A stretch of DNA of 64,000 nucleotides from Polyangia bacterium (GTDB taxonomy: Bacteria > Myxococcota_A > Polyangia > Palsa-1104), in assembly GCA_035607415.1 (NCBI GenBank), contig DATNAQ010000031.1, positions 85,357 to 149,356 of the forward strand, in the 5' to 3' direction. A model generated the notes under the pieces. The model worked only from the letters and a program-made list of their open reading frames with translations. It did not search any database and was not told where the DNA came from. Positions within the stretch are counted from its first letter, which is position 1. The number at the start of each line of letters is the position of its first letter. Below are positions 33,526 through 34,457 of the stretch, one piece after another. Position numbers and translations under genes: made by a program.

Positions 33526-34457
33526 GCGAGCGGCCGGGATATTTCGGCAAGATCGCCGTCGCCGCGCGCACCGTCGCCGAGGGCATGGCGGTGACGCTGG
33601 CGCAGTATTTCCGGCGGCCGACGACGGTGCAGTATCCCGATCGCACGCGCGTGCCGGTGGTCGATTCGCTGCCCGAGCGCTATCGCGGGTTCCTCGAAGT
33701 GGACATGGACGTCTGCACGGCGTGCAAGGCGTGCGAGCGCGATTGTCCGATCGACGTCATCGCCATCGACGTGGAGAAGCGCGGGGACGGACGCGTCATG
33801 ACCCGCTTCGACATCGACATGGGCAAGTGCATGTACTGCGGCATCTGCGTCGAGTCGTGCCCGGTGCCGGCGCAGGCGCCGGGGGACGCGGAGCCGACGA
33901 AGTGCATCCGCATGACGCGGGAGTTCGAGGGGGCGACGGGCGAGTTCTCGTCGCTGACGTTCCGGTTCGTGGAGGCGGGGGCGCCGGCGCCGGCGTACAA
34001 GCACCAAAAGGGCACGGTGCCGGCGACGCCGGAGCGCGGCCAGATCGCGCGCGCGGTGCGGCAGCGGGCGCGCGCGGCGAATCCGACGGCGGTGCGCTGG
34101 TCGCGGGTGCACCAGGAGGGCGGCGCGCTGGCGGAGCTGCTCGCGCACGACGCGGTGCGCGCGCGGGTGGAGGAGCTGGCGCAAGGCGTGACGACAGAGC
34201 TCGGGGCTGGCGAGCTCGGGGCGGTGATCGCGGGCGAGGCGCTGGCGAAGACCGATTGCGGCGCGTGCGGGTGGCCGACGTGCCGCGCGTATGCGGAGGC
34301 GATCGCCGTCGGAAAGGAGCGCGCGCTGCACAAGTGCGGGCCGGGCGGCGCCAAGGCGACGCGCGACGTGCACCTCATCGTCGAGCTCGCGCGCGGCGCC
34401 ACGCCGGACGAGGCGGCGATGCGGGCGATGGCGGCGACGTTGCGGCGGCATCGATGA
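33522..34457 (+). CDS. nuoI: NADH-quinone oxidoreductase subunit I fused to a C-terminal RnfB/CoFeSP-type [4Fe-4S] domain
   Basis: GTG overlaps the nuoH stop (GTGA). The two ferredoxin motifs are [12 protein letters not shown] and [12 protein letters not shown]. The protein is 311 aa versus about 160-180 for a normal NuoI. The extension ends with [31 protein letters not shown]. Confidence 0.85.
   Translation: [311 protein letters not shown]

Follow-up and report, generated by a model that had tools for sequence, protein, structure and literature searches.

Complex I-like enzymes of eleven subunits, encoded by gene sets without nuoEFG, have been described (Moparthi & Hagerhall 2011; Desulfitobacterium hafniense), and the identity of their electron donor is a recognised question, still treated as unsolved in a 2024 paper. 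The papers on these enzymes report no domain fused to NuoI, and mention an N-terminal extension of NuoC in Bacillaceae only. Here we analyse a nuo cluster in a 64,000-nucleotide stretch of a Polyangia bacterium (assembly GCA_035607415.1, contig DATNAQ010000031.1, positions 85,357 to 149,356; this whole stretch is hereafter called the window) whose NuoI carries at its C-terminus a domain of the Pfam family PF04060 (FeS), to which the FdI domain of RnfB also belongs. The cluster shares with the eleven-subunit enzymes a gene set without nuoEFG but differs from them in that nuoB is missing as well, so that not all eleven core genes are present. The fusion is conserved and abundant in environmental and uncultured Myxococcota and is apparently undescribed: as the preliminary description of the window had supposed, targeted literature searches and the main surveys of complex I diversity yielded no account of a NuoI-PF04060 fusion, while the proteins already bear the automatic database names '4Fe-4S binding', '(Fe-S)-binding' or 'NuoI family'.

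The NDH-1 enzyme of cyanobacteria and chloroplasts uses free ferredoxin with the accessory subunits NdhS, NdhV and NdhO. NuoEF is also missing from the Fpo complex of Methanothrix (Methanosaeta), which is without FpoF, and from the Nuo complex of Campylobacter and Helicobacter, which has NuoX and NuoY; the presumed donor, at the subunit I end, is ferredoxin or flavodoxin, and we know of no extra Fe-S domain fused to subunit I in either complex. NDH-1 (6KHI, 6L7O) resembles the window enzyme in being EFG-less, and its electrons enter at NdhI, which heads the structural matches of the NuoI core; it differs in that here the ferredoxin-like domain is covalently joined to subunit I, and no genes resembling NdhS, NdhV or NdhO were seen. 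Additional subunits of NDH-1 have been mentioned (PMC11238625).

The closest described counterpart of the fused domain is found in another membrane redox pump. In the cryo-electron microscopy structure of the Clostridium tetanomorphum Rnf complex, RnfB FdI (residues 40-90) is highly mobile, lies between two flexible solvent-exposed linkers, resembles the corrinoid Fe-S protein (CFeSP) domain and probably contains a [4Fe-4S] cluster; its authors suggest that the movement of the segment ferries electrons from fixed clusters to the membrane subunits (PMC9588780). RnfB FdI (PDB 7ZC6 and 8AHX, chain B) and the NuoI domain share the PF04060 family, the cysteine spacing CX2CX4CX16-17C and the helix following CxPGG, and in both systems the domain is tethered by a linker to the electron-input subunit. 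In RnfB, however, the domain is placed behind an N-terminal transmembrane anchor, with the ferredoxin modules after it, whereas here it lies C-terminal to a NuoI core that has no anchor, and the host complex is complex I-like. The CFeSP large subunit (PDB 2YCL, 4DJD, 4C1N) has the same Pfam family and cysteine pattern; its TIM-barrel/corrinoid-binding part is absent here, and the profile similarity is weaker than that to RnfB. The ferredoxin domain of NqrF in Na+-NQR, which was cited as an analogue of RnfB FdI in the Rnf paper (PMC9588780), is likewise a flexible Fe-S domain, with an anchor on one side and a globular domain on the other, whose movement transports electrons, but it has a [2Fe-2S] plant-type ferredoxin fold, is unrelated in sequence and belongs to another complex.

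The reading frame of the window NuoI and its parts are the following.

33522-34457, + strand: nuoI-FeS, 311 residues, GTG start, from translation of the open reading frame
33522-33971, + strand: NuoI core, residues 1-150, with two CxxCxxCxxxCP motifs for clusters N6a and N6b; Foldseek against NdhI/NuoI chains, E 8e-8 to 1e-6, probability 1.0
33972-34106, + strand: proximal extension, residues 151-195, a helix with R172, G173, A176 and R177 and then a hinge, from the alignment and the AlphaFold2 (AF2) model
34107-34454, + strand: C-terminal six-helix module, residues 196-311, with the Fe-S domain inside, from a separate AF2 model
34242-34337, + strand: PF04060 (RnfB FdI/CFeSP-type) [4Fe-4S] motif, residues 241-272; Pfam 37.2 bits, E 2.5e-9

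Analysis of the core indicated that the window protein is a divergent NuoI/NdhI by its motifs, its fold and its synteny, with hidden Markov model (HMM) scores under the curated cut-offs. The two ferredoxin motifs are at residues 65-76 and 103-114 (motif scan; Pfam Fer4_7 and Fer4). The HMM matches cover residues 12-148, with the top NCBIfam scores at 83.2 bits for TIGR01971 and 82 bits for ndhI against curated cut-offs of 113 and 302, and the ndhI model fits the core as well as the NuoI model does. Foldseek with the full-length model found the NuoI fold in some 45 chains of NuoI/NdhI (E 8e-8 to 4e-4, probability 1.0), cyanobacterial NdhI being on top. The gene order around nuoI is H-I-J with overlapping stops and starts: its GTG start shares GTGA with the nuoH stop and its stop shares ATGA with the nuoJ start.

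The NuoI-like part stops near residue 150 and is followed by an extension of about 160 residues (about 151-311). Its cysteine codons lie at 34257-34259 (C246), 34266-34268 (C249), 34281-34283 (C254) and 34335-34337 (C272), giving the spacing C246-x2-C249-x4-C254-x17-C272 (CX2CX4CX17C). The first three cysteines stand in KTDC246GAC249GWPTC254, and GPGG follows directly after C272. Translation of the reading frame thus bore out the 311-residue NuoI with two ferredoxin motifs and a long extension that had been noted earlier; the cysteine codon positions and their spacing had been given exactly, and 33969 was about right as the start of the extension. The extension had also been said to end in the cysteine motif. 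The motif is present, but 39 further residues, forming two helices in the AF2 model, lead from it to the C-terminus.

The identity of the extension was tested with profiles and with structure predictions, and it carries a bona fide PF04060 domain. The Pfam match on residues 241-272 covers profile positions 1-31 of 33 and lies above the gathering score (37.2 against 23 bits). The NCBIfam rnfB model TIGR01944 aligns with residues 240-294, where its score of 50.5 is below the cut-off of 68.7. A profile built from 20 such domains, in which the four cysteines are kept throughout and which spans both clades of relatives defined below, was compared with the PDB and matched RnfB chains alone (7zc6_B, E 4.7e-8; 8ahx_B, E 8.5e-8), aligning with RnfB residues of about 30-100 with all four cysteines matched. 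As a single query against the PDB, on the other hand, the extension gave marginal matches (E 0.02-0.2), of which the top one was a spurious aminopeptidase.

Models of the protein were consistent with these results. In the AF2 model of full-length NuoI (mean predicted local distance difference test score, pLDDT, 83.4; predicted template modelling score, pTM, 0.50) the core and residues 151-186 are confident and the C-terminal part is above 90; residues 151-186 and 201-311 are thus predicted with high confidence, while residues 189-198 (34086-34115) form a hinge of pLDDT <50, where indels also occur in the homologue alignment. Residues 196-311 modelled alone gave a compact six-helix module (pLDDT 93.3, pTM 0.87). 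Foldseek with the full-length model returned NuoI/NdhI chains only. With the model of the C-terminal module the best specific matches were the N-terminal [4Fe-4S] domains of CFeSP (4djd_C, 4c1n_G and 2ycl_A; root mean square deviation 2.0-2.4 A over 36-52 columns, 35-42% identity), whose E values of 4-7 are not significant by themselves. The preliminary description had compared the domain with RnfB and CFeSP alike. The likeness to RnfB stands on the profile matches and that to CFeSP is weaker; because the similarity runs on through the helix after CxPGG, the domain appears closer to RnfB FdI than to CFeSP. By its cysteine pattern it most likely binds one [4Fe-4S] cluster via Cys246, Cys249, Cys254 and Cys272.

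The whole protein was rejected as an RnfB, since it has no N-terminal anchor, no rnf context and a TIGR01944 score under the cut-off; no Rnf families were found in the window reading frames scanned, and the neighbours of nuoI are nuo genes. It was likewise rejected as a CFeSP large subunit, since only Fer4-type and FeS families match the 311-residue protein and no TIM-barrel/corrinoid-binding part is present. An exhaustive query with residues 203-311 retrieved 247 representative proteins. PF04060 domains related to that of the window occur in five copies in one protein of 507 residues (P0335), in three copies in another of 263 residues (P0244), in RnfB, and fused to FAD/NAD-binding reductase or GidB-like methyltransferase domains (P0278, P0258/P0262); PF04060 is a portable module across many architectures.

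Conservation was tested in a set of 669 NuoI homologues, where nearly all of the best 120 of 669 agree with the window protein in length and in their Fer4 and PF04060 architecture. In an alignment of 113 homologues from independent assemblies C246, C249, C254 and C272 are invariant, as are R172, G173, A176, R177, R215, Y257 and P274 among the other residues of the extension. These 113 sequences show little or no variation at the four cysteines and over much of the extension, which indicates purifying selection. No cultured host was found among the named matches, every one of which is a metagenome-assembled genome (MAG). These data bear also on the possibility that sequencing, assembly or gene calling had joined nuoI to a separate gene for a small Fe-S protein, which the preliminary description had named among the findings that would overturn the fusion. 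The probability of such an artefact is practically nil, since the reading frame is continuous, the G+C content at third codon positions is uniform (0.93, 0.94 and 0.93 in the core, linker and FeS parts), the gene overlaps both of its neighbours, and the same architecture recurs in dozens to hundreds of independent contigs from different projects.

The gene nuoI-FeS is one of ten translationally coupled nuo genes that form a cluster on the + strand, in the order A-C-D-H-I-J-K-L-M-N. The other nine are the following.

29938-30318, + strand: nuoA (126 residues), Pfam Oxidored_q4, E 1e-31
30315-30791, + strand: nuoC (158 residues), from translation; orthologue in L002 with Complex1_30kDa
30785-31927, + strand: nuoD (380 residues), Pfam Complex1_49kDa, E 1e-79; quinone/N2-site motifs including RISSH intact
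31924-33525, + strand: nuoH (533 residues), Pfam NADHdh on residues 161-475
34454-34996, + strand: nuoJ, from translation; orthologue with Oxidored_q3
34993-35298, + strand: nuoK, Pfam Oxidored_q2; GTG start overlaps the nuoJ stop
35300-37495, + strand: nuoL (731 residues), Pfam Proton_antipo_N and Proton_antipo_M
37512-39344, + strand: nuoM (610 residues), Pfam Proton_antipo_M
39341-40807, + strand: nuoN (488 residues), Pfam Proton_antipo_M, E 3e-73

No nuoE, nuoF or nuoG was found in the cluster or in the 64-kb window: the gene order leaves no room for them, and neither a NuoG query with positive controls nor NuoF motif scans detected any. The tblastn queries for NuoE and NuoF, which were approximate and without a positive control, matched nowhere, and no redox partner genes were seen in the rest of the window.

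To compare the cluster with its relatives, GTDB species genomes were scanned once; 166 relatives were found and 80 loci were kept, on which the nuo genes and the FeS domain were mapped by tblastn, and a rough neighbour-joining tree of the NuoI core was constructed. All relatives are MAGs, nearly all labelled Myxococcota or 'Deltaproteobacteria' (Polyangia, Myxococcaceae, Anaeromyxobacteraceae and others). The association with EFG-less clusters was thereby tested, and every related cluster examined lacks nuoEFG and any other candidate input subunit; the complex without NuoEFG proposed in the preliminary description therefore holds for the window and for all of these clusters.

The tree resolved two clades. 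Clade I, in which the window lies, comprises loci whose NuoI core is at least 60% identical to that of the window, with the order A-C-D-H-I-J-K-L-M-N and never nuoB; nearly all carry one FeS domain, while L037 and L051 (from a Haliangium-labelled MAG) carry none. Clade II, with a NuoI core about 50-58% identical to that of the window, has complete eleven-gene clusters A-B-C-D-H-I-J-K-L-M-N, and Pfam annotation of two of its loci confirmed this order with no extra redox genes. Its NuoI proteins carry one, two tandem or no FeS domains. Where both nuoA and nuoC were seen, the loci were distributed as follows.

1 FeS domain, nuoB absent: 20 loci
1 FeS domain, nuoB present: 15 loci
2 FeS domains, nuoB present: 9 loci
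0 FeS domains, nuoB present: 9 loci
0 FeS domains, nuoB absent: 2 true cases (L037, L051)

Duplication of the domain and the linkers of the relatives were analysed in the same set. Tandem pairs were identified in at least 14 NuoI proteins (those of the nine informative loci and five on short contigs), which are about 390-410 residues long (L027, L028 at 10001-11170, L029, L035, L036, L047, L050, L052, L064 and others). Spacers of 71-93 residues separate the cysteine motifs of the two copies; all contain a variable Ala/Pro-rich stretch, and Ala+Pro amount to 28-41% of the spacer. The clade II proteins without the domain, from Anaeromyxobacteraceae-type loci, L069 and L079, have Pro/Ala-rich tails in its place. 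Because lineages lacking the domain are nested among those bearing it in this rough tree, the family probably had the FeS domain from its origin, with several later losses, and nuoB was probably lost once. An insertion directly behind the second ferredoxin motif, at residues 115-128 of the window NuoI (33864-33905), is found in clade I and not in clade II; it holds an extra cysteine (C128) that is conserved often but not universally. Three short contigs are binned outside the myxobacteria, L032 (Gemmatimonadales-labelled, 1.9 kb), L065 (Bdellovibrionales-labelled) and P0134 (a Solirubrobacterales-labelled NuoB), possibly through errors of binning or through rare transfers.

In Myxococcia-type loci (L039, L044, L058, L070-L073, L079-L083 and L085) the EFG-less cluster is adjoined by a divergent second nuo operon, located upstream on the minus strand. 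In L083 this operon is A-B-C-D-G-H, its NuoG confirmed by Pfam, and tblastn matches to NuoG were obtained in the second operon of L039, L058, L071, L073 and L080-L082, where the flank reaches far enough. Because the adjoining operon carries NuoG, the FeS-bearing cluster represents a distinct isozyme, and these Myxococcia genomes encode a G-containing enzyme and a separate EFG-less one. The best explanation for the window cluster is that it encodes a second complex I-like enzyme, without the NADH-oxidising module NuoEFG, of a Polyangia-like myxobacterium.

The absence of nuoB from clade I required separate consideration. In the window the nuoA stop overlaps the nuoC ATG (30315-30318), leaving no room for nuoB, and neither a NuoB motif nor a tblastn match was found in the 64 kb. 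The gene is also absent from about 20 related Polyangia-type clusters, while the sister clade keeps both nuoB and the NuoI fusion. The NuoD residues lining the N2/quinone site are strictly conserved in the B-less clusters, and because of this NuoB is probably encoded elsewhere; the simplest inference from the sequences is that another locus supplies it in the B-less clade. A query with the sister-clade NuoB gave no match traced to genomes of known B-less loci among the 120 matches listed. One may ask, then, whether the extra cluster of NuoI stands in for NuoB and N2 as the electron donor to quinone, as might be suspected from the missing nuoB and from the size of the extension, which at about 160 residues is close to that of NuoB. 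This candidate was rejected, and we regard it as very improbable. The two traits are independent over the 80 loci: since clusters with both, with either one and with neither all exist (24 informative loci have nuoB and the FeS domain, nine have nuoB without it, and L037 and L051 have neither), the domain does not replace N2; moreover, its small helical fold is unlike that of NuoB, and the N2/quinone-site residues of NuoD are retained. The tie between the fusion and B-less clusters that had been suggested earlier fails for the same reasons, the fusion being as frequent with nuoB as without it and B-less clusters without the domain being known.

In the wire of complex I, N6a and N6b precede N2, which is on NuoB. 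NuoI had initially been taken for the subunit that ends the Fe-S wire, and this is corrected by the established order of the clusters, which places N6a/N6b before N2. An input role for the fused domain makes sense because NuoI is the first station in an EFG-less enzyme; the clusters have neither nuoEFG nor another candidate input subunit, so that the wire begins, exposed, at NuoI. We lean, if only slightly, towards a tethered domain that works as an Fe-S carrier or adaptor and supplies N6a from a low-potential donor, by analogy with Rnf. The helical module of about 110 residues, joined to the NuoI C-terminus through the conserved helix and the hinge, would then be a mobile, ferredoxin-like carrier or adaptor of the RnfB-FdI type that is built into the subunit. 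We infer that a low-potential donor in the cytoplasm (ferredoxin or an enzyme that reduces ferredoxin) would reduce it, and that the electrons would then move on to N6a of the NuoI core and further to N6b, N2 and quinone. The AF2 picture is consistent with a tethered domain because of the low pLDDT of the hinge and because pTM is 0.50 for the whole chain against 0.87 for the module alone. With the hinge, the variable Ala/Pro-rich spacers of the relatives and the absent input module, these NuoI proteins share the design logic of Rnf. More tentatively, and with some doubt on our part, the Myxococcota could possess an unrecognised input device in which one or two RnfB-FdI-type [4Fe-4S] domains serve as swinging arms and replace NuoEFG or ferredoxin with NdhS/V/O, the Polyangia-type clade operating it with a NuoB borrowed from another operon.

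Several observations speak against the tethered carrier. The stretch that would act as the linker in the clade of the window is mostly confident helix in the AF2 model and not of low complexity, so the module could be docked and not swinging; the cluster of the window is without nuoB and the assembled enzyme is therefore not fully defined; the binding of a cluster is itself read from the four cysteines; and no conserved partner or donor gene was found beside the clusters at the window locus and in the annotated relatives. Furthermore, Anaeromyxobacteraceae-type loci, L037, L051, L069 and L079 have lost the domain and kept the EFG-less cluster, and because several sublineages have done so the domain is not indispensable for this type of enzyme.

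The main rival takes up the first of these points, holding that the module is a fixed extension of the wire or a docking platform, rigid on the NuoI/NuoC/NuoD surface where the N4/N5 region of NuoG sits canonically, with one stationary cluster serving a specific partner such as a hydrogenase, a formate dehydrogenase or a 2-oxoacid:ferredoxin oxidoreductase. A defined interface would fit the confident prediction and strong conservation of residues 151-186 and 201-311, including R172, G173, A176, R177 and R215. The relatives with long, length-variable Ala/Pro-rich linkers and tandem copies are difficult to reconcile with a rigid module, however, as are the mobility of the homologous RnfB domain, the whole-chain pTM of just 0.50 and the lack of a conserved partner gene nearby, and we consider this arrangement unlikely. 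That the extra cluster lies off the electron pathway, with a function in stability, assembly or redox sensing (like N7 in some NuoG), or that the enzyme runs in reverse, quinol oxidation driven by the proton-motive force reducing a low-potential acceptor, would agree with the loss of the domain from sublineages that keep the EFG-less cluster and with the many unrelated architectures of PF04060, such as the reductase and methyltransferase fusions. Strict conservation of the cysteines and duplication of the domain would hardly be expected on that account, the domain sits on the sole subunit that lies exposed where the wire begins, and in Rnf its counterpart is known as a carrier; such a function seems to us quite unlikely.

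A tethered carrier, if true, would be a new solution for electron input beside NuoEFG, FpoF, ferredoxin with NdhS/V/O and flavodoxin with NuoX/Y. For the donor question of the eleven-subunit NuoEFG-less complex I the fusion offers a concrete hypothesis, namely a low-potential, ferredoxin-like input at N6a, and it would add a further case to those in which the RnfB FdI domain is known to be used as a portable, mobile shuttle for electrons. The module is small and predicted to fold alone, which provides an experimental handle, including its use as bait for the redox partner. The clusters also flag abundant soil and freshwater Myxococcota with two complex I isozymes, which matters for the reconstruction of energy metabolism from MAGs, where automatic names such as '(Fe-S)-binding protein' hide the two-isozyme picture.

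The window DNA is of high G+C content (0.65-0.74). Outside the nuo cluster it resembles ordinary myxobacterial chromosome, with genes for Ser/Thr kinases, FHA and sigma-54 proteins including an FHA/sigma-54 activator, methionyl-tRNA synthetase and histidine biosynthesis (his genes); further neighbours include a metallo-beta-lactamase-fold protein, a phosphoribosyltransferase, an Lnt-like protein and a uracil-DNA glycosylase.

Other subunits of the cluster also show unusual features. NuoH has an N-terminal extension of about 145 residues (31924-32358) that begins with a signal/lipobox-like LLAGC and has no Pfam match; Tandem Repeats Finder identified in it a tandem repeat at 31980-32025, with a 15-bp unit in 3.1 copies encoding ALAGC repeats. 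The NuoH extension of relatives is longer (NuoH of 670 residues; L002, 7992-10004) and contains a PDZ domain. Typical bacterial NuoL and NuoM are clearly shorter than those of the window (35300-39344), which have 731 and 610 residues, the Pfam domain of NuoM extending from residue 231 on. In the clade I locus L008 (11068-13679), and also in L010, nuoI-FeS and nuoJ are separated by inserted genes for COX2 (E 9e-13) and COX1 (E 1e-130); this heme-copper oxidase insertion in L008 hints at a role in aerobic respiration.

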